Below, piece after piece: positions 20,133-36,407 of a DNA stretch of 64,000 nt. Each line of letters opens with the position of its first letter. Position 1 is the stretch's first letter. The notes beneath the pieces are model-generated. The model was not told the origin of the DNA. It made no database searches and saw only the letters and a list, made by a program, of their open reading frames with translations. The stretch is from NCBI GenBank assembly GCA_030041155.1, contig JASHOJ010000187.1, positions 1,446 through 65,445 on the forward strand, read 5' to 3'. The position numbers and the translations under genes were made by a program. The DNA is from Candidatus Binataceae bacterium (lineage in GTDB: Bacteria > Desulfobacterota > Binatia > Binatales > Binataceae).

Positions 20133-20140
20133 GCGCGCAT

Positions 20141-21022
20141 TTATTCGGTGGTGCAAGAACCGTCGAGGATGTAGTCAGCGGCCTTTTGCGCCTTGGCGGC
20201 GGCGATCACGATCAGGCGCTTGTCGCTGCGCACTCGCGCCAACCACCCTTGAAGGTAGGCCGCTTCGTTCTCGATCACCGCCGGCGAAATTCCTGCCTCC
20301 GCGCAGAGATAGGCGGCTGACATTTCCGCGATTAACTCTTCCGCGGCGTATGTCGGCGAACCGAAGGGTGCCGCCTCCGCGATCGATTCACGATTGAGTC
20401 GCTTCGGGTGTCCTGCCGCGTGGGATTCTTCGTGGTTCAGGGTCGCATAAAATTCGGCAGCGCTGCTGAAAAGCTCGCGCGGCGGCAGCGTGATGCGATC
20501 GGCCGTCGGGCTATAGAAAGCTTTCGATCCGCCGAATTCAATAGCCGGCGGGTTCGGCATATTGGCGATGATCCGCTCCGCTGCTTCGATGGGATCGCGC
20601 TGGTACGTCTGAATCTTCGGAAGCCTGTCCAGCACCGCTTGCGGCAGCTCGCACTGCTCTACGTTCCAGAGTCGGTAATAGCGCAGGACGAAGCGTCGGC
20701 GATTCCTCCGGTCCGCTTCCACCTTCTCCAGGTCCGGCTCCGCCTCGGACTGCGATGCGCCATCTACTCGCCAGAACACGACGATTTGGCTTTGCTCGCC
20801 TTTCGGCACCGATCCGCCAAGCTCGTTAGCCTGCCTGAGCGTGAGCCAGTATGGCGACACGTACTTGGTCGCCGACAAAAGAAAGAAGTTCACGCCGCGA
20901 TAGATCTTTTTCGAGACGATGTTGCGCGGTGCTCCAGCCGCGCTCCATGGCCGACGCCACGGAATCACGCCTTGCTCAAGCAGGTTGATGATCCTCTCAG
21001 TCACGATTGCGTAAGTGTTCAT
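20141..21022 (-). CDS. ardC: Antirestriction protein ArdC (ssDNA-binding N-domain plus metalloprotease C-domain)
   Basis: 'MNTYAIVTERIINLLEQGVIPWRRPW' is an ArdC/DUF1738-type N-terminus. 'LNHEESHAAGH' is the HEXXH zinc-protease motif. Confidence 0.8.
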   Translation of the reverse strand: MNTYAIVTERIINLLEQGVIPWRRPWSAAGAPRNIVSKKIYRGVNFFLLSATKYVSPYWLTLRQANELGGSVPKGEQSQIVVFWRVDGASQSEAEPDLEKVEADRRNRRRFVLRYYRLWNVEQCELPQAVLDRLPKIQTYQRDPIEAAERIIANMPNPPAIEFGGSKAFYSPTADRITLPPRELFSSAAEFYATLNHEESHAAGHPKRLNRESIAEAAPFGSPTYAAEELIAEMSAAYLCAEAGISPAVIENEAAYLQGWLARVRSDKRLIVIAAAKAQKAADYILDGSCTTE

Positions 21023-21252
21023 TGTCGCTCCGCTCCTCTTCTGGCGCCCGCTTCCGCGAAAGCGGCAGGGCGCGGCTTGGTTCGTAAACACCCGAACCGT
21101 TTTCCGCCCTCGCGCTCTTCACCCCTGACTGAGAGTGCGAGGGTGGAAAGACTCGCCGCGGAGCGAAGCGGAGCTACCAATGAGCGCGACGGAGCAATTC
21201 AAGGCCGCCGTGACAAGCGCGAGCGGTCTCGGTCAGGGATGGCGCGGCGGCC

Positions 21253-21633
21253 TTGAGCGCAGCCGCGCAAGGCGGAGTGGTGGGCATTGCGGTGTTGCTC
21301 ACGTATGTGACTGCGATATACATTGTCAGGGTGGATTGGGAGGAAAGGCTGGCGAGTTGCGAAGGGTTCCAATGGGATGCCGGCAACGCGGCAAAGATCT
21401 GGGACCGTCATCAGGTGACCCCGGCCGAATGCGAGGAGCTGTTCTTCAATCGGCCTCTAGTGGTGGCCACTGACGAAGAGCACTCCGCAGGCGAAGAACG
21501 GCTCTACGCACTCGGCCAGAGCGATAGTGCAAGGCTGATGTTCGTGGTGTTTACGATTCGTGGGCGGCTGATCCGCGTGATCTCGGCACGCGATATGAGT
21601 CGCAAGGAGCGAAGGATTTACCGATCATCATGA
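21253..21633 (+). CDS. brnT: BrnT-family toxin (DUF497)
   Basis: 'FQWDAGNAAKIWDRHQVTPAECEE' matches the BrnT signature. The true start may be GTG at 21331, which gives ~100 aa. Confidence 0.6.
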   Translation: MSAAAQGGVVGIAVLLTYVTAIYIVRVDWEERLASCEGFQWDAGNAAKIWDRHQVTPAECEELFFNRPLVVATDEEHSAGEERLYALGQSDSARLMFVVFTIRGRLIRVISARDMSRKERRIYRSS

Positions 21634-21902
21634 AAAAGGCACTACCCAAATTCAAAAGTGAAGACGCCGAGCGGGAGTTTTGGGCAACTCACGACTCGAC
21701 CGAATTCGTCAATTGGCGCAAAGCGAAGCGCATGATCCCGCCGAGCCTGAGGCCCTCCTCGCAGACCATCTCACTGCGTCTACCTAAGCCGATGCTCGAT
21801 CGCCTCAAGCTTCTCGCGAACAAACGGGACGTGCCGTATCAATCGCTGTTGAAAATGTTCGTTGCGGAGCGGCTTGAGGCTGAGCTGAAGGGACAGCGAT
21901 GA
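21630..21902 (+). CDS. brnA: BrnA-family antitoxin (CopG-like)
   Basis: ATGA overlap with brnT. 'EREFWATHDSTEFVNW...SLRLPKPMLDRLKLLANKRDVPYQSLLKMFVAERL' is the BrnA/ribbon-helix-helix pattern. Confidence 0.6.
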   Translation: MKKALPKFKSEDAEREFWATHDSTEFVNWRKAKRMIPPSLRPSSQTISLRLPKPMLDRLKLLANKRDVPYQSLLKMFVAERLEAELKGQR

Positions 21903-22126
21903 AGTGCGAGATGAAGTGCGATCAGAATCCGTCGCTGAAGGGGGATAAAAACGCTGGGTGCAGACGCCAAATAGGTGAAAACCCGGCATAGAGTGCACCT
22001 AAGGGAGTGACTGGCAGTCTTACCCCTCGAAAGATCCGGAGTGCCGAGACCGTCCTGGGAGTGGTCCAGGCGTGAGCGCTGATGTGTTTTACCGGAAAAT
22101 CGGTAAGACAGCGCCATACTGTATGC

Positions 22127-22155
22127 TTGACAATCGCTGAAATACGACGTACAGT
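22127..22155 (+). promoter_or_regulatory. Sigma70-type promoter of the DGQHR/SNF2/MTase operon
   Basis: TTGACA (22127-22132), a 17-nt spacer, then TACAGT (22150-22155). The AAGGAG RBS (22174-22179) lies 7 nt before the ATG at 22187. Confidence 0.4.
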
Positions 22156-22186
22156 CTGTGGAGTTTTGACGCAAAGGAGCTATACA

Positions 22187-23308
22187 ATGATCCTTTCATT
22201 TCCGGCGATGCGAGGGCACATGGGCAGGCGGGATTACTTTGTCACGATGGTGAAGCTCAGCCTGGTCCCCAAGCTGTTCAAATTCCGCGACTGGGCAGAG
22301 TTGCCGCCCGAGCAGCGGGCGCAGCGCGTGATCCAGAAGAGCCGTATCCCGGAAATCACCCAGTACATTCTCGATAACGAGGACGGCTATCTGTTCTCCT
22401 CGCTGACAGCCTCCTTCGATTGCGAACCAACTTTCACGCCTGTGAAAGGTCGGGATGATCTAGGCACTCTCGAGGTGCCGTTCGACTCGGATCTCGTGAT
22501 CAACGACGGTCAGCATCGACGCGCGGCGATCGAAGAAGCTCTCACCCAAAATCCGAAACTTGGCGATGAAACAATCTCGGTCGTGCTCTTCCCGTTCGAG
22601 GATTTGGGGCGGATGCAGCAGATGTTTTCCGACCTGAATCGAACCGCGCGCACCACCTCTAAGTCGCTCAACATCCTGTACAACCAGCGCGATCTCATGA
22701 GCCAGATCACGCTGACCGCAACCGAGCGCATCGACGTTTTCAAGGGTCTCGTCGACAAGGACCGCGTATCGCTCGCACTGCGGTCGCCCAAGTTGTTCAC
22801 GCTTGCTGCGATATATGACGCCACCAACGCGCTGCTCGGGTCAGTAGTCGACGCCGACTACGACAATAAGTTAGCGCTGGCGCTTGAGTTCTGGGAGGTC
22901 GTGGCGGAAAACATGCCCGAGTGGGAAAAGGTGAAAAGCGGCGATCTGAGACCGATGGAGCTTCGACAGGAATTCATCCATTCGCATGCCGTCGTGCTAT
23001 GCGCACTCGGTTCGATGGGCCAGACGCTGATTTCCACCTATCCGGATGAATGGAAAGCGCAGCTTCGGGGTCTTCGCAAGATCGATTGGCGCCGAACGAA
23101 CAAGGAATGGCAGGGAATCGCGATGTCCGGAGCGGACGTAGTCAATCGGCGGCAGAACCGGATGGACACTGCGTCCTTTCTTAAGCTCAAGATGGGGTTG
23201 AAGCTGACGCCGGCTGAAGAGCGCTCCATCAAGGGCGCCACCGATATCTCGTTGATCATGAACGACCTGCGCAAGTTTGCGGGCGAGCCTGCGGCAGCGG
23301 AAAACTAA
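22187..23308 (+). CDS. DGQHR-domain protein, DndB-like (ParB/sulfiredoxin-fold)
   Basis: 'DSDLVINDGQHRRAAIEEAL' carries the DGQHR motif (22505-22519). 374 aa, DndB-like size. No dndA/C/D/E genes nearby. Confidence 0.75.
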   Translation: MILSFPAMRGHMGRRDYFVTMVKLSLVPKLFKFRDWAELPPEQRAQRVIQKSRIPEITQYILDNEDGYLFSSLTASFDCEPTFTPVKGRDDLGTLEVPFDSDLVINDGQHRRAAIEEALTQNPKLGDETISVVLFPFEDLGRMQQMFSDLNRTARTTSKSLNILYNQRDLMSQITLTATERIDVFKGLVDKDRVSLALRSPKLFTLAAIYDATNALLGSVVDADYDNKLALALEFWEVVAENMPEWEKVKSGDLRPMELRQEFIHSHAVVLCALGSMGQTLISTYPDEWKAQLRGLRKIDWRRTNKEWQGIAMSGADVVNRRQNRMDTASFLKLKMGLKLTPAEERSIKGATDISLIMNDLRKFAGEPAAAEN

Positions 23309-23323
23309 CTCGGGGGAACTTCG

Positions 23324-23605
23324 GTGGACGACTCAAGCCAGCTTGTCGCACAGTTTGAGAAAAACGCCAAAGAGGAAGTTCGAGTCAGCATCGACGAATT
23401 TCGCGGGCGAAAGATCATCAATATGCGAGTGTATTACCGGTCCGATAGCGGCAAGTGGCTGCCTGGCAAACAGGGGCTTGCGTTGGCTGTTGATCGCTAC
23501 CGTGATCTCGCCGATGCCGTTCTAAGGCTTGGCGAACGGCTGCAGTCGCAAGGCCTGTTGCCAAACGCCTCGATCTCGACCGGCTCACGGACAGAGGGCA
23601 AATAG
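23324..23605 (+). CDS. PC4-like (transcriptional coactivator p15 / YdbC-like) ssDNA-binding protein
   Basis: 'VRVSIDEFRGRKIINMRVYYRSDSGKWLPGKQGLALAVDRYRDLADAV' aligns by eye with human PC4 '[48 protein letters not shown]'. Confidence 0.55.
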   Translation: MDDSSQLVAQFEKNAKEEVRVSIDEFRGRKIINMRVYYRSDSGKWLPGKQGLALAVDRYRDLADAVLRLGERLQSQGLLPNASISTGSRTEGK

Positions 23606-23615
23606 GGGACGGCCT

Positions 23616-26600
23616 GTGCCCAGCAAGCGATCAACAAGCCGCGAAGTCCGTGAGAATCCAACATCTGCGCAACCGGACCGAAAATCGGGCGGCGATGTTC
23701 TCGTCGTCGACAACAGCGACACCGATTGGAAGGTTCGTGACTACCTCCGAGAGTGGACGGAAATTGCTCATACCTTCGACATAGCTACGGGTTTCTTCGA
23801 GATCGGATCATTGCTGATGCTCGACGGCCAATGGCAGAAGCTCGACAAGATTCGCATCCTGATGGGAGACGAGGTATCGAAGCGCACGAAGAAGGCACTC
23901 GTCGATGGACTGATCGCCAAGGTAAAGTCCAAGCTCGACGACAGCATCGAACGTGAGAAGGAGTCTAACGATTTTCTAAGCGGAGTTCCCGCCATTGTTG
24001 ACGCCATCCGAAACCGTAAAATCGAGTGTCGCGCGTACACGAAAGACCGCTTTCACGCCAAGGCCTATATAACCCACGCGAAACTCGCGGTCGTTGGTTC
24101 AGCGGCGCTCGTGGGCTCAAGCAATTTCTCGGCGCCGGGCATCAGCCAGAACGTTGAGCTGAACATTCAACTCCGGCGCGAGGTTGAGCTGCTTCAGGAA
24201 TGGTTCGAGCGTCACTGGAAGGAAGCTGGAGACATTTCTGACGAGATCCTCAAGGTCGTCGAGCGGCAGGTCCGCGAGTACTTGCCGTTCGAGGTCTATG
24301 CGAAAGCCCTACTGGAGTACTTTCGCAACCACGAAATCTCAGCCGGCGAATGGGAACAGCTCCAGTCACGGATGTTCAAAGTCTTGGACCAGTATCAAAA
24401 GGAAGGATACCAAGCGCTCGTCAAGATCGCTCGTCAATACGGCGGAGCGTTTCTCTGCGACGGCGTCGGCCTTGGCAAGACGTTTGTTGGCCTGATGCTG
24501 ATCGAGCGTCTCGTGATGTACGAACGCAAGCGCGTGATGTTGCTCGTGCCCAAGGCCGCCCGCGAGTCTGTCTGGGAAGCCTCACTCAAGCGATACCTGC
24601 CGCATCTTCTTGGTGACTTCAGTAATCTCGTTGTCTTCAATCACACCGACCTTGGCCGAGGCAACGAATTCCCGGAGCGCTTTCAGCGGATGAAGGAACT
24701 CGCCGACGTGATCATCGTCGACGAGGCCCATCATTTCCGAAATCCAGGTGTTCGAGGCGGCGAGGACGCCCGTCCAGGAATTCGCAGGAAGGCAGAGGTC
24801 GCGCCCTCCCGCTACTGGCGCCTTTTCGAGATCGCCGAGGGCAAGACGCTTTTCATGTTGACGGCGACGCCCGTCAATAACAGCTTGCTCGACCTACAGC
24901 ACATGATTGAACTCTTCTCTCGTAGGCAGCCTGATTATTTCAAGGCAGCGCCGCTGGGAATCCATTCGCTTCCGGGGCATTTCAGGAAGATAGAAAACGA
25001 CCTTCTAAAGGCGCTTGGCGCTTCGAAGCCGAAGGACGACGGAGCGACGGAAACTAACGAAGTCGAAGCTGAGCAGGTTCTGTTTAGCGATGAACTGTTC
25101 CGGGCTCTCGTCGTACAACGCAGCCGTGCTTACGTACGCGAGAGTCAGAAGCAAGCCGGCGCCACCGAAGCTATCTTCCCGACGCGTGAAGACCCCAAGG
25201 TGGTGGAGTATTCGGTCAAGAAGACGTACGGGCGGGTCCTTGAAATGGTCGAAGCAGCCTTTTCGAAGAGCAAGCCCCTGTTCTCCTTGGCGATGTACTA
25301 CCCTTTGGCCTACTACAAGGGCGACGATACCACCATCAATCCTTTCGAGGAAAACCGTCAGAAACAGCTGGTGGTATTGATCCGGACCCAGTTCCTGAAG
25401 CGCTTTGAGAGCTCAGCGAAGGCGTTCGAGCTCTCTTGCGAAGCTCTGCTCCTCAAGCTCCTCGCTTTCATGACCAAGAACTCTGTGACCGATTCCGAAA
25501 AGCGTCGGCTTGAGCGATGGCGAGGACAGAACGCGGAGCTTCTCGGCTCGGTCAGACAGCACCAGTTGGAGCTGTTCGAGGAGGAACCGGAGCCCGATGA
25601 GGACGTTATCACCGAAGAAATGCTTGACGATGTCGAGGAGCTGTCTCGCGACGAATATAAGGTCGAAGAGATACTCGACGAGTCCCTCCTCGACATGGAC
25701 CAGATCGCGAAATTCCTTCAGGAACTTCAAAAGCTCAAGCCCGCGCAGGACGATAAGCTGCGAGCGCTGGCGCGTCTCCTCAAGACCGACAAGATTCTCA
25801 AATCCCACAAGGTCTTGATCTTCACCGAATTCATGGCGACTGCGCGATATCTGGCACGCGAGTTGGACAAGGCCGGCTTCGAAGGAGTCGATGAGATTGA
25901 CAGTGCCCGCAAGCGAAACCGTTCCGATGTGATTCGGCAGTTCGCCCCGTACTACAACGGTTCGTCCAGCGCCGAACTCGCGCAAGTCGGTCTTTCCGAG
26001 ACGCGCATCCTAATTTCGACTGACGTACTATCCGAAGGCTTGAACCTGCAGGACGCCGCTCGCCTGATAAATTACGACATCCATTGGAACCCCGTCCGAC
26101 TCATGCAGCGTATCGGTCGCGTCGACCGACGTATGAGCCCAGAAATAGAAGCACAACTCGTCGCCGATCATCCGGAACAAAAGCCGTTAAGAGGACAGGT
26201 CACGTATTGGAATTTTTTGCCGCCGGATGAACTAAATCTTCTGCTCAGCCTGTACAGCACGGTTTCCCACAAGACGCTGCGTATTTCGAAGACCTTTGGA
26301 ATTGAAGGGAAGAAGCTCCTCAAACCCGACGATGATTATGATGCGCTGCGAGACTTTATTCACTCCTACGAAGGTTCGACGACTCCCATCGAGAAGATGC
26401 ACCTTGAATATCAGCGGCTTCTCTCTGACTTTCCCGATTTGAAGGCGCGCCTCGACGTGCTTCCTGGGCGTGTATTCAGTGGAAAGCAGAACCTTAAGCC
26501 CGGAGCGCGAGGGGTGTTTTTCTGCTACGCACTCCCAACGCCGGCCGGTCCAGCCGAGCAGCGCGCAGAGGGCGAAGAGAACGGTTGGTCGGTGGAAAGG

Positions 26601-26840
26601 GGATACACCCGCTGGTTTCTCGCTGATCTCGACAGCGAGAAAATACTGGACGAGCCGTCTGAAATTATCGACTCCATCCGTAGCGATCCCGACACCCCGC
26701 GACGGGCGGTGTTGGACAAGGCTTTGCTTACCGAGACTCGTGTTCGGGTCGAAAAACACATCAAGAACACTTACCTCAAACAGGTACAAGCGCCGGTCGG
26801 AGTTAAGCCGTTGCTGAAAGCATGGATGGAGCTCAACTGA
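23616..26840 (+). CDS. PLD (HKD) nuclease-SNF2-family helicase fusion protein
   Basis: N-terminal 'DRFHAKAYITHAKLAVVGSAALVGSSNFS' HxK(x4)D(x6)GSxN motif at ~24050. SNF2 motifs 'GVGLGKT', 'IIVDEAHHFRN', 'LTATPVNN', 'LISTDVLSEGLNLQ', 'QRIGRVDR'. The track ORF begins at 23529 but overlaps the upstream gene; a GTG at 23616 lies 11 nt after the upstream stop. Start is uncertain. Confidence 0.8.
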   Translation: MPSKRSTSREVRENPTSAQPDRKSGGDVLVVDNSDTDWKVRDYLREWTEIAHTFDIATGFFEIGSLLMLDGQWQKLDKIRILMGDEVSKRTKKALVDGLIAKVKSKLDDSIEREKESNDFLSGVPAIVDAIRNRKIECRAYTKDRFHAKAYITHAKLAVVGSAALVGSSNFSAPGISQNVELNIQLRREVELLQEWFERHWKEAGDISDEILKVVERQVREYLPFEVYAKALLEYFRNHEISAGEWEQLQSRMFKVLDQYQKEGYQALVKIARQYGGAFLCDGVGLGKTFVGLMLIERLVMYERKRVMLLVPKAARESVWEASLKRYLPHLLGDFSNLVVFNHTDLGRGNEFPERFQRMKELADVIIVDEAHHFRNPGVRGGEDARPGIRRKAEVAPSRYWRLFEIAEGKTLFMLTATPVNNSLLDLQHMIELFSRRQPDYFKAAPLGIHSLPGHFRKIENDLLKALGASKPKDDGATETNEVEAEQVLFSDELFRALVVQRSRAYVRESQKQAGATEAIFPTREDPKVVEYSVKKTYGRVLEMVEAAFSKSKPLFSLAMYYPLAYYKGDDTTINPFEENRQKQLVVLIRTQFLKRFESSAKAFELSCEALLLKLLAFMTKNSVTDSEKRRLERWRGQNAELLGSVRQHQLELFEEEPEPDEDVITEEMLDDVEELSRDEYKVEEILDESLLDMDQIAKFLQELQKLKPAQDDKLRALARLLKTDKILKSHKVLIFTEFMATARYLARELDKAGFEGVDEIDSARKRNRSDVIRQFAPYYNGSSSAELAQVGLSETRILISTDVLSEGLNLQDAARLINYDIHWNPVRLMQRIGRVDRRMSPEIEAQLVADHPEQKPLRGQVTYWNFLPPDELNLLLSLYSTVSHKTLRISKTFGIEGKKLLKPDDDYDALRDFIHSYEGSTTPIEKMHLEYQRLLSDFPDLKARLDVLPGRVFSGKQNLKPGARGVFFCYALPTPAGPAEQRAEGEENGWSVERGYTRWFLADLDSEKILDEPSEIIDSIRSDPDTPRRAVLDKALLTETRVRVEKHIKNTYLKQVQAPVGVKPLLKAWMELN

Positions 26841-29800
26841 TGGCCTCTGCCCTGAGTGGTAACGCTAATCGCCTTCGCGACATCAAGACGTTCCCTTCAC
26901 TCGTCAAATACCTGCGCGATGACCTTGACTGGCCGATCGACAGCGATGACTTCGAGGATCTGACGTTCGAATGGGAGCCTGAGGAACTCGGGATCGACCC
27001 AGCAAGCGCGGCGAAGATTCAGGAGATCAAACAGCTTCGTCCTCTCAGCAGCGATCAACCTTGGGGCATCTTCTTCGTGAAGTTCGAGCCCCGGAGACTC
27101 CCAGTTGTCGCGCTGCGGCGGATCTTACGCGCCTTGGTCGTTCGCAAACGCGTTGCCACCGCTAAAGCTCAGCAGAAAACCTGGTCGCTCCACGACTTGC
27201 TGTTCATCTCAAGTTATGGCGAATCCGATCAACGGGAAATCGCTTTTGCTCACTTCGCCGAGGAACCGGAACTTGGAGATCTGGCGACGCTGCGGGTTCT
27301 CGGCTGGGATGAGGACAATGCCGAGGAACGCCTGCAATACACGGACGCAGTGCTGAGAGAGAAGCTTCGATGGCCGGATGACGACCGCGACTTGGATTCG
27401 TGGCGATCGCGATGGTCGGAAGCTTTTACCCTGCGTCCGGGAGAGGTAATTCGAACCGCCAAGGCGATGGCCGAACGTTTGGCGGAACTAGCCGTGAGAA
27501 TCCGTAAGCGGGTCATCGAGGTACTGAACTACGAGCGTGAGCGCGGACAGATGCGAAACCTATATGTCGCGTTCAAGGAGGCGTTGATCCACGACCTGAC
27601 CGAGGACGATTTCGCAGATACATACGCGCAGACCATCTGCTACGGTCTCCTGACCGCCCGCTTCTCCCGTCCGGCAGGCTTGATCGCGGAGAACCTGAAA
27701 GACATGGTGCCACCGAGTACCAATCCCTTCCTCCGGGAATTACTGGGTACCTTTCTCAAGATCGGCGGTCGCAAAGACAAGCTGGATTTCGACGAGCTTG
27801 GCATCACCGAAGTCCTTCAAACTTTGCACGCCGCCAAGATGGAAGAAGTAAGGCGCGACTTCCTCGAGCGGAATCCAGACGAAGACCCGACGATTCGCTT
27901 TTACGAAGATTTTCTCAAACAGTACGACCCCAAGAGGCGCACACAACGCGGGGTCTTTTATACACCACGCCCTGTCGTTTCTTACATCGTCCGCAGCGTC
28001 CACGAACTTCTCCAAAGTGAATTTGGACTTCCTGAAGGTCTAGCTTCGACCACTACCTGGGGCGAGATGGTGAAACGCCATCCCAGCCTGAAAATTCCCG
28101 AAGGAACAGCTCCCAGTTCGCCGTTCGTTCAGATCCTCGACCCGGCAGTTGGTACAGGGACCTTTCTCGTTGAAGTGATCGACATCGTCCACAAAACCAT
28201 GCTGGCCAAATGGGAAAGGGACGGTCGCAAGGCCCTCGAGATTCCGAAACTGTGGAACGAATACGTCTCGAGACATCTTCTTCCACGGCTTCACGGCTAT
28301 GAACTTATGATGGCTCCGTACGCCATTGCCCACATGAAGATTGGCCTGAAACTTCACGAGACCGGCTACCGCTTTGGCAGCGACGAGCGCGCCCGGATTT
28401 ACTTGACAAACTCACTGGAGCCGCCCCACGACTTTTCTGATCGGCTCGCGTTCGACGCTCCCGCACTTGCTCATGAGGCCAAAGCAGTCAACGCGATAAA
28501 GCGCGAACAACGGTTTACGGTAGTTATTGGTAATCCGCCTTATTCGGCTTCAATTTCGGAGCCCGACTGGCTCATGAAGGCACTGGAACAATGGAAGCAA
28601 GGTCTAAACGAAACGAAAATCGATCTTAATCGTGAAGAATGGAAGTTCCTTCGTCTGGGTCAGATCCTGTGTGGTAAAGCATCGCTCGGACTCCTGGGCT
28701 TCGTGATAAATCGTGATTACCTGGACGGCGTCGCGAAGCGAAAGATGCGAGAGAGCCTCCAAGAAAGCTTCCCCTACCGTCTGATTGTGGATCTAAACGG
28801 CGACGTAAAGGGCAACATCGCCGACCAGAACGTATTCGAGATTACGCAGGGTGTTTGCATAACGATCCTTTGCCGCGGCGATGGCGATCAGCATCGATTC
28901 TTTTCCGTTATCGGCAATCGGGACGAGAAATATTCCATTTTGTCGGATAAGGTGGCACTCGATCGGCATCTCATCAGTTTTACGCCAACGCCTCCATATT
29001 TTCGCTGGATTCCTCCCGCCGGACAGCGCTCGGCTGATGCTGAAAACGAGTATTTGCAATGGTATCCGGTCAACGAGCTATTTCAGGTCTACTCTTCCGG
29101 AATCCAAACCAAGCGCGACGGATTGTGTATTCACTTCAGCGAGAAAGATCTCTGGTCAACCGTAACCCGGCTGAATGAGCTCACTGTCGCCGCTGCTCGG
29201 AAAGAGTTTGACCTACCCCCGGACGGCCGAGATTGGACGGTCGCAGCGGCGAAAGCAGACATATCTGCATCCGGGCCGAACAAGCGATATATCACTCGTC
29301 TTCTGTATCGCCCATTTGATATCCGCTTTACCTACTGGACGGGACGCACGAAGGGTTTTGCCGCCTATCCGAGGCGTGAGGTTATGCAGCATGTTGTCGG
29401 CCGACACAATATAGGAATGATTTTCAATCGTCAGGTGGTCGGCGACGGCGTTTCTCACTTCGGGGTATCCCGTTTGCCCATTTGCCATGGCACGTTTTAT
29501 CTGGGGAACAAAGGGCAGGACTATTTCGCTCCTTTATTCATCGTAAGGGACGACCTTATCTCACGGTCAAACCCTCTCCTTGAGCCAAACTTTAGTACGC
29601 AGTTTGCGTCTGCCTTAGCGGACGTATGGAGGCGGACGGCTGATAAGCCAGCTCCTTCTGATGTCTTTAACTATGCCTATGCGGTCTTCCACAGTCCTAT
29701 CTATCGTAGGCGGTATGAAGAATTTCTGAAACGTGATTTTCCACGACTTCCGTTAACGGGGGACGCCAAATTGTTCCAAATTCTCGCGCGGCTCGGAGGC

Positions 29801-30193
29801 GAGCTTGTAGCCTTACATCTTATGGAGTCGGCGCTTCTGAATCGGCATTTGAGTGATTTTCTCGGCAGAAGGAGACCTGAGGTTGAAAGGGTCTCCTACG
29901 ACAACAAGACAATCTGGATCGACAAGGAGCAGGTCTGCGGTTTTCAGGGCGTGCCGGAGGTCGTCTGGGAGTTTCGCGTTGGGGGTTATCGGGTCTGCGA
30001 AAAATGGCTAAAGGACCGCAAGGGTCGCGTACTGTCCACGGAGGACATCGATCACTACCAGCGCATCGTCGTCGCTCTATCCGAGACTATTCGGCTCATG
30101 AAGGAAATCGACAAAGTCATCGAAAAACACGGCGGCTGGCCCGGTGCATTTTCCACTGACAACGTGGATTCGACCAGAAGCGCGAACGCGTAG
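26840..30193 (+). CDS. N6-adenine DNA methyltransferase, gamma-class, PglX/DrmMI/Eco57I-like (MTase plus putative TRD)
   Basis: Motif X 'GVFYTPRPVVSYIV', motif I 'LDPAVGTGTFLVEV', motif IV 'VIGNPPYSA' (NPPY at 28532-28543). N-terminal aromatic helix 'TYAQTICYGLLTARF' as in PglX. TGATG overlap with the upstream stop; an alternative ATG at 26822. Confidence 0.8.
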   Translation: MASALSGNANRLRDIKTFPSLVKYLRDDLDWPIDSDDFEDLTFEWEPEELGIDPASAAKIQEIKQLRPLSSDQPWGIFFVKFEPRRLPVVALRRILRALVVRKRVATAKAQQKTWSLHDLLFISSYGESDQREIAFAHFAEEPELGDLATLRVLGWDEDNAEERLQYTDAVLREKLRWPDDDRDLDSWRSRWSEAFTLRPGEVIRTAKAMAERLAELAVRIRKRVIEVLNYERERGQMRNLYVAFKEALIHDLTEDDFADTYAQTICYGLLTARFSRPAGLIAENLKDMVPPSTNPFLRELLGTFLKIGGRKDKLDFDELGITEVLQTLHAAKMEEVRRDFLERNPDEDPTIRFYEDFLKQYDPKRRTQRGVFYTPRPVVSYIVRSVHELLQSEFGLPEGLASTTTWGEMVKRHPSLKIPEGTAPSSPFVQILDPAVGTGTFLVEVIDIVHKTMLAKWERDGRKALEIPKLWNEYVSRHLLPRLHGYELMMAPYAIAHMKIGLKLHETGYRFGSDERARIYLTNSLEPPHDFSDRLAFDAPALAHEAKAVNAIKREQRFTVVIGNPPYSASISEPDWLMKALEQWKQGLNETKIDLNREEWKFLRLGQILCGKASLGLLGFVINRDYLDGVAKRKMRESLQESFPYRLIVDLNGDVKGNIADQNVFEITQGVCITILCRGDGDQHRFFSVIGNRDEKYSILSDKVALDRHLISFTPTPPYFRWIPPAGQRSADAENEYLQWYPVNELFQVYSSGIQTKRDGLCIHFSEKDLWSTVTRLNELTVAAARKEFDLPPDGRDWTVAAAKADISASGPNKRYITRLLYRPFDIRFTYWTGRTKGFAAYPRREVMQHVVGRHNIGMIFNRQVVGDGVSHFGVSRLPICHGTFYLGNKGQDYFAPLFIVRDDLISRSNPLLEPNFSTQFASALADVWRRTADKPAPSDVFNYAYAVFHSPIYRRRYEEFLKRDFPRLPLTGDAKLFQILARLGGELVALHLMESALLNRHLSDFLGRRRPEVERVSYDNKTIWIDKEQVCGFQGVPEVVWEFRVGGYRVCEKWLKDRKGRVLSTEDIDHYQRIVVALSETIRLMKEIDKVIEKHGGWPGAFSTDNVDSTRSANA

Positions 30194-30228
30194 TTCGGCC
30201 AGAACTTATCTGCTCGCAGGTTAAGCCG

Positions 30229-33200
30229 ATGCCAACCCCCTACGTTCGTCATGTCTCAGTCCGAGTTCCCTGGCAGGATGCCGTGTGGAATGGTCACGTG
30301 TGCGATGATCCCTTGGCTAACAGTTCCTGTCTCGCCCTGCGGTTGATCGCCGAGAATCGAGACGACGAGGTCGAGCAAGGACTCGCGAAGGAAGCATTTG
30401 ACGGACTCTCGCCGGAGCAGATGCCGCCTTGTCTTAGGAGCAGTGCCGCGTTCCTGTCCCCTCACTCGTACACGTTTAAGAGTGTGATGGAGTACTCAAA
30501 ATGGAGCCGCGACCACAAGCACATTCTGCCGCGTTCGGTTCATCTTCCGGCGTTTGGAGCACTGCTGATCCCTTATCGTTGGATGCTAAAGGAGAGCGGG
30601 TTTCAAATTGCCGAGAGTCTCGAACTGGACGCACACGCGGAGCGCGAGCCAAATAGACCATCCTGGCTGGTGAACACGAGCTGGGTTCAGCACCAGGACA
30701 ATCAACGAACCCTCCTCGATGCGTTCGCGAAGCCGCTCTTAGAAGATGAAACGCTAGTGTTCTTCTACGCGCCACGAACGCCACTTTGCGATGACGAGCG
30801 CCGGGCGCTTCTCGGAGTTGCTCTCCTCCAGAAGAAGTCCGACCTAGTTGAGTATCCCTACGAAGGTGGCAATCCAAACGGCCGCCTTCAGGCGATGGTA
30901 TGGGAACGGCCCATTCAGCATTCGTTGCGGCCACGACGGAAGAAGGGGACGGGATTCAGCGGAGGTTTCGTGATGCCGTATCACGAAGTCCTGGCGCTCG
31001 CAGAGCGCGACCGAACGGTCGATCCCGCCGAATTCGTGGCGTTTGTTCCTAACGACGTGCGCGTGCAGTTCTCCTATGGCAGCGAGCATGTTTCCCATGG
31101 TGTGGCGGCAACCGTTTTGACCGCTTCGAGGAATGCGCTGGAAAAGATTGGAACAAAGCTTGAAGGGCCATGGACTAGCTACATCAGTTGGATTGACGAA
31201 CGCCTCTCTCGCCTTTGGCGCCTACAAGGTCCCGCGCCAGGACTTGGTGTGACGTTGTCGGCGCTCCATAAGGGGTTCAATGGAACATTGTTCGCGGTCG
31301 CACTCTCGGATGTTCTCGGCGAAAACGAAGATCCATGGTCGGTCGTAGATAGGGTCCTATCGGGAGCACAGGACGCACCGCCCGGAGCACCGAAGATTAC
31401 GACAGTTCTTCGCCGACGCTGGGCTAACGTCAAAACCGATCCAAAGAGACTCGCGGCGCTGAAACTCCTCGCGCGCTTCGAACTGACAAATGATCAAGCT
31501 GATCGAGCTGTGAACGATTCTGAGCCTGCAAGGCTGTTGGGCAACCCTTACGTGTTATACGAGGACGATCGCAAAAGTTTCGACAGGGTGTCCTTTGCGA
31601 CGATCGATCGTGGTCTTTACCCAGGTGCTGAAATCGCCGCCGCGCATCCGCTATCTGCGGAATGCGACCGCAGTCTCGACGAACCGGACAATCCACTCCG
31701 CCTACGGGCCGCTTGTGTCCATATTCTCGAAGAGGCCGCTGCCCAGGGAGACACTATTCTACCTGCGGACCGTGTCAAAGATGCATGCGAGAAGCTGACT
31801 CTTTCCCGGCCGTTGCCTCTCGACGGCGAGTTGCTCGATATATTCCGAGACGATTTCAGGCCCGTAATTCAGGTCGGCGGTGAAAGGACGAAGCCGACCG
31901 CTCAACTGGAGCGATACGTTCACTATCGTGAAATCATCGAGCAGGCGGTCAAAAGCCGCCTCAAATCCAAGCCGAAGAGAGTCGTCGTCGACTGGAAAGC
32001 CTCTTTAATCCGCAAATTCGGGAAGCCCAGGCCGGGCGACGTCGATGAACTGCGCGCACGGCAGGAGAAAGAGGTTGCATTGGATCGGCTTACCGCAAGC
32101 CGAATCGCCACTTTGGTTGGCCCGGCGGGCACGGGTAAAACGACTGTCCTTGAGCTCTTGCTCCAGCAGGATGCGGTGGTCGGTACTCGGGTTCATCTTC
32201 TGGCGCCGACTGGGAAAGCCCGTGTCCGTCTCGCTCAGGAGACTAACCGACCCGGAGAGGGCGAAACCATAGCGCAATTTTTGTTGGCCTTGGAACGGTA
32301 CGACAAAGTGACGGGCCGCTATTTTCCCAATCCTTCAGCCGCTAAAGCCGAAGCGACGACCTGCATCGTCGATGAATCTTCGATGATGACCGAAGACATG
32401 CTGGCGGCCATCACCGATGCAATACCTGATAGTTGTCGTCTGATCTTGGTTGGAGACCCGTATCAGCTTCCCCCGATCGGCGCGGGGTGCCCGTTCGTGG
32501 ACATTATTGAGTTTCTCCGCCACAACCATGCGGAGGCCATAGGTGAACTAACAGTACCAAGACGGCAGGACACCAGCTCGCAAGACGGCCGTCGAACGAC
32601 CCCGCTAGAGCGATCGGACGTTCAACTCGCTGCGATCTTCTCTGGACGTGCGCTCCTTCCAGGTGAAGATGAAATCGCCGCTCGAATATTGACTTCTGCT
32701 GATGACGAATTTGTGAAGTGTCGCCGATGGGATCAGACGGCCGAGCTGCCGAGCCTTCTCAGAACGATCTTCAAAAAAGAATTCAGTGCGAACGATGACA
32801 CCCTACAGAGCAAGTTTGAAGAATTCCTTGGTGCAGTCACAAACCAGAAGGGATACCTCAACTTTGAAAATGGTTGTTCCGACGGGGCGTCCGATTGGCA
32901 GATCCTGTGCGTTACCAAAACTCAGCCCGGTGGCTCCATCCACCTGAACCGCCACATTAAGGAGACATACCGCAGCGAATGGCTAGAGAAAGCGATCGAA
33001 TCAAATCACGTTCCACACTTTCGAGATTGGTTTAGATTCATTAAGCCGCGGGGCCCGGAGCAAATCACATACGGCGACAAGGTGATTTGCGTGCGAAACC
33101 ATTTTCGGGGTCCTTGGATATATGCTGAGAGAACGAGAGGTCCCGAAGATGAATATATAGCCAACGGCGAAACCGGCATAGTGGTTGGACAGTGCGCCTA

Positions 33201-34017
33201 TGGTAAAAGCAATCCTCGCTTTACGCACGTGGAGTTCTCCGGGCGACCTGATCGCTCGTTCAGCTTTGGCCCTGGCGCCTTCCGCGAAGAAGGGCAGCCA
33301 TATCTTGAACTTGCTTACGCGATAACTGTCCACAAAGCACAAGGTAGCGACTTTGACACAGTGATTCTTGTGCTGCCGATGCAAAGCAGGTTGCTCTCTC
33401 GAGAGATGCTATACACGGCGCTGACCCGACAGAAGAGAAGAATCTGGATCCTGCATCAGGGGCCACTTGATAGCCTGTTGGCTTACCGCCATTACTCGTT
33501 CTCCGATATTGCAGCACGCTTCACGAACCTCCTACGCGAGCATCGACCACAGCAAGTGCCCAACCCAGTCGGCCTCCCGTCGGGTCTCCTGTCATTAAGC
33601 AGAGGGTTCCTCGAAGAACGCCTAGTCCATAGAACAGTTCGCGGTGAGATGGTTAGCTCTAAGTCGGAGCTCGCGATTGCCAATATTTTGTACTTACTCG
33701 AACGAGAGGGGCATTTGACATACGTAGTGGAGCCTCCATTGCCTTTTGCTGATAACGCAAAAGGCCGTTGGGCGGACTTTCAGATTAAATGTCGCAGCGG
33801 GACCTGGTATTGGGAGCACTGCGGAATGATGGATCACGAGAGCTATCGGCGGCGTTGGAAGCGGAAGGAGAGGCTATACCAGGAGAACGGCTTCACGCGT
33901 TACTCCGACGAGAATCCGTCTGGACACCTGATAGTCACAGAGGACGGATCGGGCCAGGGTCTGGACTCGCAGGCTATCGCCCTTCTGGCGCGCAAGCTCT
34001 TTGTCTCAGCGGATTAG
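30229..34017 (+). CDS. SF1 (RecD/Dda-like) helicase with unknown N-terminal domain and C-terminal DUF559/Vsr-like endonuclease fold
   Basis: Walker A 'LVGPAGTGKTTVLE', Walker B 'CIVDESSMM', 'YAITVHKAQGSDFDTVILVL' (SF1 motif VI region). C-terminal 'ELAIANILYLLEREGHLTYVVEP...ADFQIKCRSGTWYWEHCG' resembles DUF559/very-short-patch-repair nuclease domains. Confidence 0.7.
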   Translation: MPTPYVRHVSVRVPWQDAVWNGHVCDDPLANSSCLALRLIAENRDDEVEQGLAKEAFDGLSPEQMPPCLRSSAAFLSPHSYTFKSVMEYSKWSRDHKHILPRSVHLPAFGALLIPYRWMLKESGFQIAESLELDAHAEREPNRPSWLVNTSWVQHQDNQRTLLDAFAKPLLEDETLVFFYAPRTPLCDDERRALLGVALLQKKSDLVEYPYEGGNPNGRLQAMVWERPIQHSLRPRRKKGTGFSGGFVMPYHEVLALAERDRTVDPAEFVAFVPNDVRVQFSYGSEHVSHGVAATVLTASRNALEKIGTKLEGPWTSYISWIDERLSRLWRLQGPAPGLGVTLSALHKGFNGTLFAVALSDVLGENEDPWSVVDRVLSGAQDAPPGAPKITTVLRRRWANVKTDPKRLAALKLLARFELTNDQADRAVNDSEPARLLGNPYVLYEDDRKSFDRVSFATIDRGLYPGAEIAAAHPLSAECDRSLDEPDNPLRLRAACVHILEEAAAQGDTILPADRVKDACEKLTLSRPLPLDGELLDIFRDDFRPVIQVGGERTKPTAQLERYVHYREIIEQAVKSRLKSKPKRVVVDWKASLIRKFGKPRPGDVDELRARQEKEVALDRLTASRIATLVGPAGTGKTTVLELLLQQDAVVGTRVHLLAPTGKARVRLAQETNRPGEGETIAQFLLALERYDKVTGRYFPNPSAAKAEATTCIVDESSMMTEDMLAAITDAIPDSCRLILVGDPYQLPPIGAGCPFVDIIEFLRHNHAEAIGELTVPRRQDTSSQDGRRTTPLERSDVQLAAIFSGRALLPGEDEIAARILTSADDEFVKCRRWDQTAELPSLLRTIFKKEFSANDDTLQSKFEEFLGAVTNQKGYLNFENGCSDGASDWQILCVTKTQPGGSIHLNRHIKETYRSEWLEKAIESNHVPHFRDWFRFIKPRGPEQITYGDKVICVRNHFRGPWIYAERTRGPEDEYIANGETGIVVGQCAYGKSNPRFTHVEFSGRPDRSFSFGPGAFREEGQPYLELAYAITVHKAQGSDFDTVILVLPMQSRLLSREMLYTALTRQKRRIWILHQGPLDSLLAYRHYSFSDIAARFTNLLREHRPQQVPNPVGLPSGLLSLSRGFLEERLVHRTVRGEMVSSKSELAIANILYLLEREGHLTYVVEPPLPFADNAKGRWADFQIKCRSGTWYWEHCGMMDHESYRRRWKRKERLYQENGFTRYSDENPSGHLIVTEDGSGQGLDSQAIALLARKLFVSAD

Positions 34018-34152
34018 TGCGGTTTAGTAAATAGGATCTCGTCAGAGAATCAGAGGACCGGCACGGCCGCCGCACAGTCCTTCGCGACATGGTGAAAAAG
34101 CTTTTGTTGTTCAAGTGATTCACGCGTCAGGACTGCAACTCGAGGCGCAGCT

Positions 34153-35298
34153 ATGGGGATTGCGAGCTATCAAGAAGACGATTTTGAGCGCTATACAGAC
34201 GCTCACTGGCGGGAGCTTAAATCCGCGCCCCAGGACCGACTTTATTTCTGCGATGTCTGTCGGGCTGAGTTCGCGAGCGAAGAGCAACGTGATCTACACC
34301 GGAGCGAGGTGCACTTGGCCGCGATTCCGCTGCTGCTGCTTGGAAATGTGGCGGCCCCCCACGAAATCCGGATCCGCAATCACAAGATGGCGGAGCAAGT
34401 CGGATTTCAAAACTGTCGCAAGCTTTCGGTTGCTCGCGACGGCCTTAGGCCGGTGCCCTACACCCCGACCCGACTGAAAGCCGAACTCGCGAAGGCCAAC
34501 CAGAGCCACTACCTGGTCCGTCCAGATGGTAGCGATGAGGAATACGTGATCTCCGTCCAGATTCCGGAAGCAGCGGTGCTGCGCGAAATTGATAGGACAT
34601 TCGTCGAATTGCTAGCAGTCGAAGCGCCGCGCGTTCAGGACATTGCCCGCTTCCGCGAAGTTGCCGCATCCATCGGTCGGGTCGGCGAATACAGCGGTGC
34701 GTTAGCTGATTACGTTATGGGCACGATCATCAAGGATCGGGATCACGCGCGCGGCGCCACGCTCGATTTTAATGAGTACAAGCCGAAGTACGAGTCCGCG
34801 CGCGCCATCCTTTTTGATTATGTGAAGGACGAGAGCCACCGCCCACCCGTCCCAGAGGCGGTCTGCGCGTCCATCAATTTTGGTCTTAACCAGTTTGACG
34901 GAACCTATCGTCCCGTCGGGATTCGGCTTCTCGACGACTGTGTCAGGTTTCTACTGCCACTTCTCGGTCCGACTACCAAGCTGCCAGACTTCACGCTCGT
35001 GTCACCCAGCCGGCATGGTGCCCCGATCTGTCCGCTCGATGGTGGCACGCATCATGTGCTGCAGGCCTTCGAGCGGATCAGCCTCAGCTCCGGTCGGTCA
35101 TTAGACGTGCTTCGGGAAGAGGCGGAAAAGGCCGAAAGCACCCTGCTTTCCGAGTATGACCGTGCGAAGCTTTACACGTTTACGGCGGTGGGACTTTTAA
35201 AGGCGGGCGATCGCAGCTCCTCTAAAAAGATACTCGCGCATCTCGTGAACGATTTTACTTTTAGCCGATGGGCCGAAGCTCAACTCTATTCCGCATGA
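34153..35298 (+). CDS. Hypothetical protein with N-terminal C2H2-type zinc finger
   Basis: 'YFCDVCRAEFASEEQRDLHRSEVH' is a perfect C-x2-C-x12-H-x4-H pattern. 381 aa, first gene of a coupled trio. Confidence 0.5.
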   Translation: MGIASYQEDDFERYTDAHWRELKSAPQDRLYFCDVCRAEFASEEQRDLHRSEVHLAAIPLLLLGNVAAPHEIRIRNHKMAEQVGFQNCRKLSVARDGLRPVPYTPTRLKAELAKANQSHYLVRPDGSDEEYVISVQIPEAAVLREIDRTFVELLAVEAPRVQDIARFREVAASIGRVGEYSGALADYVMGTIIKDRDHARGATLDFNEYKPKYESARAILFDYVKDESHRPPVPEAVCASINFGLNQFDGTYRPVGIRLLDDCVRFLLPLLGPTTKLPDFTLVSPSRHGAPICPLDGGTHHVLQAFERISLSSGRSLDVLREEAEKAESTLLSEYDRAKLYTFTAVGLLKAGDRSSSKKILAHLVNDFTFSRWAEAQLYSA

Positions 35299-36407
35299 AT
35301 GACAAGAATATCCAGCAAAACGCTGCTGAAAAGACGGCTGCCGGCACCCGAGACAGCTCGCAGGCACACGATGATAGCTCTCACGCCGAAGGACCGTCAT
35401 CCCCCAGGCTGAATCAATCGGATGTCGGGGGTGCCCACATTCCTTCGGGACCGAGCCCAATGTCGGCTCCATCGCTTACAGGTTATTACTCAGCGCGGCG
35501 CGGCCAGCCGGGGGCCCTCGTTAAGGCGCTTCGCCTGGGACCCGGCACAGGGTTTCCGGATACCGAGCGACAAACAATTCTCGCCGATATCAGCCGACTT
35601 GATCCGTATCTAGCGAAGTCTGTCACTCTGGCCCAAGCTGCAACGGACGTGGCAAAAGATCGGGCCGTCTTTGATTGGATCGGTGAACTCGTCGTTTACG
35701 AACTCCGAGGTCATTGGGCGCCGGAAGCGGGCCTCTCCGCCGCAGAAACGTTCGATGAGATCTCCCGCTCGATACGCGCCCAGATGCAGCGAAAGGAAGC
35801 TCGCAAAAAGGGCTTCAACCTGCTGCTAACCGCACTCGCCTGGCTTGCGCCTCGCGGCCTCCAGCCCGAGGACGCTCTGAGAGCGATCGAACACGCTCTC
35901 ACCGTTGCCAAGCGGAGCAGCATTACAAGCGACGAGCGGCAGCGCCAAGCGATGGCAGAGCTGGTGAAGATCAAAGCCAGCCCCAAGCTTCTCAAGGCGT
36001 TGCTCCAGATTCTCGCTCCCTGGCGCACGCGTACTCTCGAGGTCGAAGCACAAGCCGCCGCGCACCGCGAAGAAGTGGCCGCCCTAAATTCCCGAATACA
36101 AGCGTTGGAAGGACGCGTTACGGAATCCAGGGAACTGACGACAAATCTCGAGGCGCGACTGGCGGATCACGGCCGTCTGCTTGAAGACCGTGAGCGTAGG
36201 CTAAGCACACAGCACAATCTTGCCCAATCGCAGCTGGCCCTTACTAGGGGAACGATTAACGGTTGGCTCGAAAACGAAGTGCGACCGCGCCTGGCAGATG
36301 CATTGGATGCGGTCGAGTGCGAGCCCCCGCGCCACGAGGTCTTGCGCGAGCGCTTAAAGGCGGTCCTGGCTTTGCTTGATCAGAAAAAAGGGGGGCACTG
36401 GGGATGA
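35295..36407 (+). CDS. Hypothetical protein, disordered N-terminus plus long C-terminal coiled coil
   Basis: ATGA overlap with the upstream stop. The C-terminal ~150 aa have heptad-like spacing (..AALNSRIQALEGRVTESRELTTNLEARLADHGRLLEDRERRL..). Confidence 0.45.
   Translation: MNDKNIQQNAAEKTAAGTRDSSQAHDDSSHAEGPSSPRLNQSDVGGAHIPSGPSPMSAPSLTGYYSARRGQPGALVKALRLGPGTGFPDTERQTILADISRLDPYLAKSVTLAQAATDVAKDRAVFDWIGELVVYELRGHWAPEAGLSAAETFDEISRSIRAQMQRKEARKKGFNLLLTALAWLAPRGLQPEDALRAIEHALTVAKRSSITSDERQRQAMAELVKIKASPKLLKALLQILAPWRTRTLEVEAQAAAHREEVAALNSRIQALEGRVTESRELTTNLEARLADHGRLLEDRERRLSTQHNLAQSQLALTRGTINGWLENEVRPRLADALDAVECEPPRHEVLRERLKAVLALLDQKKGGHWG

Follow-up and report, generated by a model that had tools for sequence, protein, structure and literature searches.

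A candidate composite defence locus in Candidatus Binataceae with a DndB-PC4 leader pair and a split Type ISP-like restriction-modification pair

A 64,000-nucleotide (nt) stretch of a Candidatus Binataceae genome (contig JASHOJ010000187.1 of assembly GCA_030041155.1, positions 1,446 to 65,445; hereafter the window, in which position 1 is the first letter) carries five co-directional genes, g1 to g5, at 22187-34017. An earlier reading made from the letters alone (the sequence-only reading) proposed these genes as a single undescribed methylation-linked defence system. On balance we favour the view that three separable modules are combined here behind a common promoter: a leader of g1 and g2, which encode a DndB-family and a PC4-like protein; a restriction-modification (R-M) pair of g3 and g4, which encode a phospholipase D (PLD)-SNF2 fusion and an adenine methyltransferase (MTase); and g5, a helicase-nuclease candidate. 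This view is built on the domain content of the five proteins, module boundaries drawn from co-occurrence, the conservation of catalytic motifs and the enrichment of a palindrome upstream of DndB. The single-system proposal survives in part. The DndB-PC4-PLD/SNF2-MTase order recurs with orthologues of g3 and g4 in at least 12 metagenomic loci, which excludes a chance juxtaposition of these four genes, the counter-case that the sequence-only reading had itself raised; however, comparative loci separate the three modules.

The first gene, g1 (22187-23308, plus strand, 373 amino acids (aa)), encodes a full-length member of the DndB family. It matches Pfam DndB at 6e-114, PADLOC DndB at 1e-124 and TIGR03233 with 399 bits, above the cut-off of 328 of this NCBI equivalog model, and shares 46% identity with DndB of the dndBCDE operon on a P. 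aeruginosa plasmid. The DGQHR motif that had been read in g1 is at residues 107-111 (22505-22519), within a ParB/Srx-like domain that is followed by a C-terminal region with an R-x6-H motif. This C-terminal region of DndB was termed HEPN by Makarova et al. (PMC3632139), and the HEPN survey PMC3710099 makes no mention of DndB. No solved relative of g1 was found by sequence in the PDB. The absence of dndC, dndD and dndE, also part of the sequence-only reading, is borne out: tblastn with P. aeruginosa DndC, DndD and DndE across the window gave only matches of E > 0.5, and a Pfam scan of window open reading frames (ORFs) from ~11.6 to 63.7 kb detected none of the three, ORFs below ~11.6 kb being covered by tblastn only. 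The second gene, g2 (23324-23605, plus strand, 93 aa, GTG start), encodes a PC4/Sub1-like protein, predicted to bind single-stranded DNA (ssDNA). Its likeness to PC4, formerly seen by eye, is supported by Pfam PC4 (1.8e-13, 50.2 bits against a gathering cut-off of 25) and by PDB matches to MoSub1 (3e-7), human PC4 and the bacterial BPSL1147. The PC4 fold binds ssDNA, and in a by-eye comparison the F and Y positions of g2 align with the aromatic DNA-contact residues of PC4.

We scanned metagenomes with g1 (243 confirmed relatives, best 80 kept) and one genome per GTDB species with g3 (593 confirmed relatives, best 80 kept). Among DndB loci with room for a further gene, a PC4 homologue is located 14-103 nt downstream of DndB in all 53 with DndB of at least 70% identity to g1, and follows DndB in only 2 of the 20 with DndB below 70%. 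Moreover, contigs retrieved via two PC4 homologues (five places) bear DndB directly upstream of PC4 every time, and contigs retrieved via one DndB homologue show the same DndB-then-PC4 pair. The g2-type PC4 is thus an obligate partner of the g1-clade DndB. None of the best 80 DndB loci contains a dndBCDE operon, and a single one (L106) has DndD/DndE within 10 kb. We found no paper on DndB together with PC4 among open-access papers and bioRxiv preprints, nor is the pair described in two recent comparative studies of Dnd and BREX; the DndB-PC4 leader looks new.

What follows the pair is varied. In 33 of 36 loci, the first downstream gene of at least 150 aa runs in the direction of DndB-PC4, separated from the pair by -4 to a few hundred nt, and in five loci the stop codon of PC4 and the start codon of g3 overlap by 4 nt. 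Besides the orthologues of g3 and g4 in at least 12 metagenomic loci, the cargo comprises an Eco57I-like MTase of ~1350 aa (942 bits with PADLOC REase_MTase_IIG) accompanied by a PLD-SNF2 protein only distantly related to g3 (25-28% identity) and, in some loci, by STAND-like and Mrr_N genes; an MmeI-like MTase with a distant PLD-SNF2 protein; a Schlafen-PIWI prokaryotic Argonaute (pAgo; PADLOC, 1634 bits); Wadjet JetA (615 bits) with an SbcC-like protein; a ResIII helicase with PDC-S06 (605 bits); a GHKL ATPase with a helicase and a second DndB paralogue; an RNaseH-SF1 helicase (SF1, superfamily 1); an E2-ThiF-JAB protein of the E1/E2/JAB type; a 2209-aa NACHT protein; and a UvrD-like protein with AAA_21. 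In L102, L105 and L106 (11975-17351), the cargo consists of an MzaB-like GHKL ATPase, a PbeA-like ResIII helicase, a 179-aa protein and a divergent DndB paralogue (Pfam DndB 1e-29).

The pair is also found alone. In L173 and L174, a small mobilisable element that has fragments of Mob_Pre and RepB-primase ends with DndB-PC4 (7856-9288; DndB with 89% identity to g1). Both contigs share the same sequence to ~9.9 kb and differ beyond it, representing two insertion contexts, so that DndB-PC4 moves without downstream cargo. Three DndB homologues of 62-64% identity (L137, L146 and L152) lack a PC4 neighbour and are encoded by ORFs of 513-555 aa, with small genes downstream and ATAAACA-type repeats upstream; those of L146 and L152 have a C-terminal extension of 150-180 residues with no Pfam match, and the ORF of L137 has extra residues at both ends. 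In searches of plasmids, DndB matches reach at most 46% identity and belong either to canonical dndBCDE (P. aeruginosa) or to an orphan DndB of Neorhizobium, tblastn with g2 gave two weak matches only, neither adjoining DndB, and megablast of the whole operon against PLSDB plasmids gave no match. The pair looks essentially environmental. The Neorhizobium orphan (46% identity; L161, 6839-13355 of the 15-kb Neorhizobium sp. SOG26 plasmid NZ_CP025514.1) has GAGCTC repeats upstream and, downstream, genes for CopG and two N6-MTases; PC4 and dndCDE are lacking. Here, too, a DndB has been recruited to a methylase system.

The second module is formed by g3 and g4. The product of g3 (23616-26840, plus strand, 1074 aa, GTG start) is the fusion that the sequence-only reading had described: profile searches detect PLDc_2, SNF2-rel_dom/ResIII and Helicase_C, and PADLOC C3a139 'HKD+Snf2' matches at 1e-52. 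Across 32 orthologues, the HxK (HAK)...GSSN, Walker A GLGKT and DEAH motifs and SNF2-type motifs III, V and VI are kept, and the PLD domain has one HKD copy only. The product of g4 (26840-30193, plus strand, 1117 aa) is an N6-adenine MTase with a target recognition domain (TRD). Its assignment to the gamma class agrees with Pfam (N6_Mtase, Eco57I and Type_ISP_C, the last at 2.4e-74 across the full model). The PglX-like N-terminus ascribed to it is not supported: PglX models score only ~13 bits, and their matches fall within residues 426-568, in the MTase core rather than at the N-terminus. The suggestion that g3 and g4 together form a split Type ISP enzyme in which PLD replaces Mrr fares better, the best PDB matches of g4 being LlaBIII and LlaGI. 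By phmmer and profile search, residues 276-1057 match LlaBIII (4xqk) and LlaGI (5ffj) from the helical region preceding the MTase domain to the end of the TRD, the homology reaching residue 276 via a profile of the N-terminal 430 residues. FYTP, DPAVGTGTF and NPPY are invariant across 16 g4 orthologues, in which the TRD (~600-950) shows almost no conserved columns. Such a hypervariable region beside invariant MTase motifs is the pattern expected of a specificity domain under diversification.

Residues 1-275 of g4 form a separate N-terminal alpha/beta domain, for which no solved relative was found by sequence in the PDB. D119, E128 and R132 are conserved in it, and no canonical D...(D/E)xK triad is conserved among the orthologues; the domain may be a docking domain or an atypical nuclease. 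Many of its homologues (P0125, P0133, P0138 and others) are short, at 240-490 aa, some of them from contigs that span 60-950 kb. A separate ORF may sometimes encode the domain, or the genes may often be frameshifted.

Among the best 80 relatives of g3, 36 are orthologues (46-80% identity), and these come from Acidobacteriota, Gemmatimonadota, Chloroflexota, Actinomycetota, Planctomycetota, Verrucomicrobiota, Pseudomonadota and other phyla. A g4 orthologue is present within 1.5 kb, mostly within 50 nt, in 28 of the 30 loci with a complete g3 and downstream sequence. In none of the 28 loci with at least 2 kb of upstream sequence was DndB detected there, even at phmmer E < 1. A PC4-domain gene was found near g3 orthologues only in L012, downstream of the MTase; it encodes a 204-aa PC4-like protein (16507-17121; phmmer 5e-5 to g2) directly after the g4 orthologue, with no DndB. 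Judged from these sequences, g3 and g4 probably constitute a two-subunit Type ISP-like R-M enzyme with PLD for Mrr and an SNF2-type motor, and the pair is widespread and apparently uncharacterised. According to this model, the hypervariable TRD of g4 would recognise a specific and probably asymmetric site, and g4 would methylate adenine in host DNA. At unmethylated sites g3 would be recruited and move along double-stranded DNA by its SNF2 motor, and cleavage would occur when two single-HKD PLD domains meet, because one HKD motif makes only half an active site and two g3 PLD domains would be needed.

The fifth gene, g5 (30229-34017, plus strand, 1262 aa), encodes an SF1B RecD-like helicase preceded by a further N-terminal domain. 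The SF1 assignment of the sequence-only reading is upheld by Pfam (AAA_30/AAA_19 and UvrD_C_2) and by the RecD/RecD2-like core recognised by NCBIfam and PDB searches; the DUF559/Vsr C-terminal domain has no Pfam match at E <= 0.01. The protein matches PADLOC PDC-S68 with 1341 bits, residues 5-1258 covering positions 4-1219 of the 1221-position profile, and on this ground belongs to that family. Invariant E, D-F and W-E-H-C-G positions in its C-terminal 130 residues suggest a restriction-endonuclease-like site; no Pfam model confirms this nuclease-like C-terminus. Relatives of g5 are numerous (462 at E <= 1e-30, many of ~1250 aa). Three homologues of 56-62% identity have unrelated surroundings, and DndB, PC4, g3 and g4 are absent from all of them: in Mesorhizobium after a BREX-like PglZ/SNF2 cluster, in Paraburkholderia between a giant SACS/SNF2 gene and an nSTAND gene near an integrase, and in JGI contigs beside unrelated genes. 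Only one of the best 80 g3 loci (L002) has a g5 homologue, and none was found in the other loci among the best 80 of DndB, save a C-terminal fragment upstream of DndB in L093. A search of open-access papers and bioRxiv preprints yielded no paper on PDC-S68. We prefer to regard g5 as a helicase-nuclease candidate in its own right, still uncharacterised, and as a chance member of this transcription unit that belongs to the same island and would be read through from the same promoter.

The layout of the operon is as first described. The ORF listing and a direct reading of the sequence give gaps of 15, 10, -1 (TGATG overlap) and 35 nt between the five genes, and the products of g1, g2, g4 and g5 are, residue for residue, those called on an NCBI contig, their nearest named relatives being from metagenome-assembled genomes of Candidatus Binataceae. 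The proposed sigma-70-type promoter TTGACA-17-TACAGT (22127-22155, plus strand) agrees with 10 of 12 consensus positions and is the top-scoring of only two promoter-like sites in 21800-34400, where shuffled sequences average 5.2. A TTGAC-type -35 hexamer beside the palindrome described below is kept in related DndB loci, and no terminator-like hairpin was found in any intergenic gap of the operon. With the strongest sigma-70-like site of 21800-34400 in front of g1 and terminator-free gaps behind it, a single transcript of g1 to g5 is plausible. The earlier statement that the combination is not a named system stands for the whole only in part, since PADLOC models exist for four of the five proteins (DndB for g1, C3a139 'HKD+Snf2' for g3, REase_MTase_IIG for g4 and PDC-S68 for g5), so that parts of the operon are already catalogued.

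In an alignment of the 130 nt upstream of DndB from 61 non-redundant loci, a palindrome, ACGTACWGTACGT (ACGTAC(A/T)GTACGT; variant CATACWGTATG), occurs beside or between the promoter hexamers. In 22 of the 61 loci, a member of this palindrome family is found 40-70 nt ahead of the start of DndB, and a 23rd exact core is at -82. The 7-nt core TACWGTA is thus present in 23 of 61 DndB upstream regions, at 2.83 per kb compared with 0.07 per kb across the whole loci (~40-fold enrichment). In the window, the palindrome CATACTGTATG (22115-22125, plus strand) contains the exact core and abuts the -35 hexamer (candidate operator site 1), and ACGTACAGTCTGT (22147-22159, plus strand) matches the consensus palindrome at 11 of 13 positions and overlaps the -10 hexamer (candidate operator site 2). 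We discarded a second exact core at 56360, which is inside an unrelated gene and within chance expectation. Other DndB sub-clades have other upstream repeats, namely GAGCTC in the 50% clade and the Neorhizobium orphan, and ATAAACA in the 62-64% clade. In Salmonella, autorepression by DndB is modulated by ATP and acts through two TACGN10CGTA palindromes to which the protein binds in the dnd promoter (PMC4507180; restated in PMC12704722). Given this precedent and the palindromes on the g1 promoter, the simplest inference is that g1 binds the palindromes and represses the operon.

These candidate operators, the repression by Salmonella DndB, the PC4 fold of g2 and the proposal that a PC4/Whirly-fold domain is the nucleic-acid infection sensor of Shedu (bioRxiv 10.1101/2023.08.10.552793) lead us to propose that g1 and g2 may be a portable, autoregulated leader that controls defence cargo. 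Under this proposal, the DndB-like g1 would bind the palindromes that flank or overlap the -35 and -10 hexamers and repress transcription of both g1 itself and the genes downstream, in the manner of canonical DndB on dndBCDE. The PC4-like g2 would bind ssDNA or melted DNA and link the level of repression to ssDNA arising from conjugative entry, phage replication or DNA damage, and the two together would act as a controller of mobile defence cargo akin to R-M C-proteins or BrxR/CapW. More broadly, and only tentatively, at somewhat short of even chances, DndB-PC4 could be an unrecognised, widespread two-gene sensor/regulator cassette, in which a DndB-type ParB/HEPN-like binder exapted from phosphorothioation and a PC4-like ssDNA sensor gate the downstream defence cargo upon ssDNA. 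Throughout, we infer from sequence every biochemical activity, including DNA binding by g1, ssDNA sensing by g2 and a complex of g3 with g4, and likewise co-transcription.

Several observations weigh against a purely regulatory leader. The cargo is skewed to MTase plus PLD-SNF2 of three distinct lineages (~22 of 36 resolved loci), a bias that a purely generic regulator does not predict. In L173 and L174, the pair has no co-directional cargo, and a mere repressor would have little role there. All 62 DndB sequences in a comparison retain both DGQHR and R-x6-H, and DpdB, a DndB-like protein, is reportedly an ATPase, so that DndB-like proteins can be enzymes. For these reasons (the cargo bias, the cargo-free loci and the conserved motifs), DndB-PC4 may have enzymatic or effector roles. 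In addition, the promoter and operators are proposed from consensus and enrichment only, and the sampling is that of the best 80 of 593 relatives in genomes and the best 80 of 243 in metagenomes.

One alternative, close to the sequence-only reading and in our view unlikely, is an integrated system in which DndB and PC4 are mechanistic subunits that work with PLD-SNF2 and the MTase, with g5 as a further effector; the translocase-nuclease might, for instance, be loaded or licensed by an ssDNA binder together with a ParB-like NTPase/clamp. It would account for the recurrence of the four-gene order with g3/g4 orthologues in at least 12 loci, the 4-nt PC4-g3 overlap in five of them, the two further, distant (25-28% identity) MTase plus PLD-SNF2 architectures that DndB-PC4 heads, the PC4-domain gene after the MTase in L012 and the conservation of DGQHR. 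However, g3 and g4 persist without the DndB-PC4 pair in 28 genomes across phyla, the pAgo, Wadjet, NACHT, E1/E2/JAB and PDC-S06 cargo has no component in common with g3/g4, and g5 is found in only one g3 locus and, among other DndB loci, only as the C-terminal fragment in L093. It is also conceivable, with rather less probability, that DndB-PC4 is an autonomous effector or exclusion module, that is, a ParB/Srx nuclease/NTPase with a HEPN-like R-x6-H motif that an ssDNA binder directs against incoming ssDNA or transcripts of the invader and that merely clusters in defence islands and the leading regions of integrative and conjugative elements (ICEs). The stand-alone terminal pair on a small mobilisable element in two contexts (L173/L174), the conserved DGQHR and R-x6-H, and the proximity of ArdC/SSB-type ICE genes to DndB-PC4 in the window and in L171 are in line with it, as are ParB/Srx nuclease/ATPase proteins in plasmid conflict, at least as Maindola 2014 is cited in PMC10853773, and the effector role of DndB raised by Rakesh et al. 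(PMC10853773). It is difficult to reconcile with the strict 5' position of the pair and its co-directional cargo in 33 of 36 loci, often at gaps below 100 nt or with codon overlap, with the clade-specific palindromes on the pair's own promoter and with the experimentally shown repressor role of canonical DndB (PMC4507180).

For the R-M pair, g4 could instead be a self-sufficient Type IIG/IIL restriction-methylase, with g3 as an accessory or a separate PLD-helicase defence protein. The strong match of g4 to PADLOC REase_MTase_IIG PDLC03610 (3e-165, 550 bits; listed stretch residues 586-1093) and the conserved D119, E128 and R132 speak for such an enzyme, which we nevertheless regard as improbable: a canonical D...(D/E)xK is lacking, no PDB match by sequence covers residues 1-275, and g3 and g4 are adjacent in 28 of 30 loci, g4 being almost never without g3 upstream. 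This adjacency fits obligate subunits.

If the controller proposal for DndB-PC4 is true, the pair would possibly be a third family of portable immune regulators beside C-proteins and WYL (BrxR/CapW), it would provide the first link between the ssDNA-binding PC4 fold and the control of defence operons, and it would help to explain how costly systems on ICEs and plasmids are silenced and then induced. The g3-g4 pair could reveal a translocating R-M mechanism with nuclease and motor on a separate subunit and a requirement for nuclease dimerisation. For annotation, automated pipelines label such proteins 'DNA sulfur modification protein DndB' with no phosphorothioation genes nearby, so that phosphorothioation is possibly over-predicted in metagenomes.

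The surroundings of the operon are those of a mobile island. Upstream, in window positions 1-21100 and on the minus strand, are genes for TrbL (11671-12891), a VirB4-like (14085-16745) and a VirB11-like (17720-18673) protein, and the upstream region also includes a helix-turn-helix protein (19485-20156) and an anti-restriction-type protein with ArdC-N and zincin domains (20141-21091). A BrnT/BrnA toxin-antitoxin pair (21253-21902) is directly upstream of the operon. A similar ArdC-type neighbourhood is present near DndB-PC4 in L135 and L171. Downstream, three overlapping plus-strand genes (34153-38260) encode two proteins of ~380 aa without a family match and a 618-aa Hsp70/actin-fold ATPase (HSP70 2e-43, far under the DnaK cut-offs); Hsp70-like genes also occur near the g3/g4 loci L005, L022 and L073, and the three-gene cluster may be another uncharacterised defence cluster. 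Further on are an FRG-domain protein (38304-39119; PADLOC PDC-S15, 5e-46), a second Type IIG-like MTase (41856-45128; PDLC03623, 2.5e-80), a RelA/SpoT-like nucleotidyltransferase (47647-48753) and an NTP_transf_8 protein (50837-51964, minus strand), the defence island extending to ~52 kb. With conjugation genes upstream and defence-like genes downstream, the operon lies in a defence island that is cargo of an ICE or a conjugative plasmid.

Among known systems, Type ISP enzymes (LlaGI, LlaBIII) are the closest mechanistic model for g3 and g4. Membership by g4 is indicated by the helices preceding the MTase domain, the gamma-class adenine MTase and the Type ISP TRD; an SF2 ATPase and nuclease are encoded immediately upstream, and site recognition, ATP-driven translocation and cleavage are the likely logic, as judged here from the genes. 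In contrast to the single Type ISP polypeptide with its Mrr nuclease, g3 is separate and has a single-HKD PLD, not an Mrr/PD-(D/E)xK nuclease, and an SNF2-like motor, and g4 has an extra N-terminal domain of 275 residues.

As the sequence-only reading held, profile searches and tblastn indicate a defence locus that is neither DISARM nor a Dnd system. The parts list resembles DISARM class 1 in its SNF2 helicase, PLD nuclease and adenine MTase; however, g3 scores 126 bits with the DrmD model NF038317 (cut-off 610) and 99 bits with NF038318 (cut-off 950), DrmC gives 21.6 bits against a cut-off of 133, g4 has 14 bits with PADLOC DrmMI, and neither DUF1998 nor a full DrmA was found in the five genes or 20 flanking ORFs, the sole DrmA match being the generic helicase C-lobe of g3 (60 bits). 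The design of g3 and g4 is common to BREX-related Type-2 (Hma) and PbeABCD/CxC systems, in which an N-terminal HKD nuclease with a Swi2/Snf2 or SF2 helicase accompanies an N6-MTase (PMC12839542, PMC10853773). The former requires a DUF499 ATPase and DUF3780 (PMC12839542), for which no Pfam match was found in the operon or the scanned flanks, and g3 matches HmaA (59.6 bits) in the helicase C-lobe only. The latter requires the CxC ABC-ATPase and a cognate DndE (PMC10853773); neither an ABC-ATPase nor DndE was found in the operon or the scanned flanks, and g3 matches PbeA (59.5 bits) at residues 34-326 only. A Dnd phosphorothioation system was rejected for want of DndC, DndD and DndE. The DGQHR motif of g1 and the palindromes on its own promoter recall canonical DndB and the TACGN10CGTA sites of Salmonella (PMC4507180), but dndC/D/E are absent from the window and from 79 of the 80 nearest DndB loci, the g1 clade is paired with a PC4-like gene that is not in the canonical operon inspected (P. 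aeruginosa), and the palindrome of the g1 clade is unlike TACGN10CGTA.

PDC-S68 is a candidate single-gene system that g5 matches end to end; here it is joined to an operon by a 35-nt gap. R-M C-proteins and WYL-type BrxR/CapW are small 5' regulators of many unrelated defence operons, with palindromes on their own promoters. Compared with these, DndB-PC4 is likewise at the 5' end of many defence operons and bears palindromes on its own promoter, and it differs in being two genes, ParB/Srx-DndB and PC4 rather than HTH or WYL, with a predicted regulatory role.

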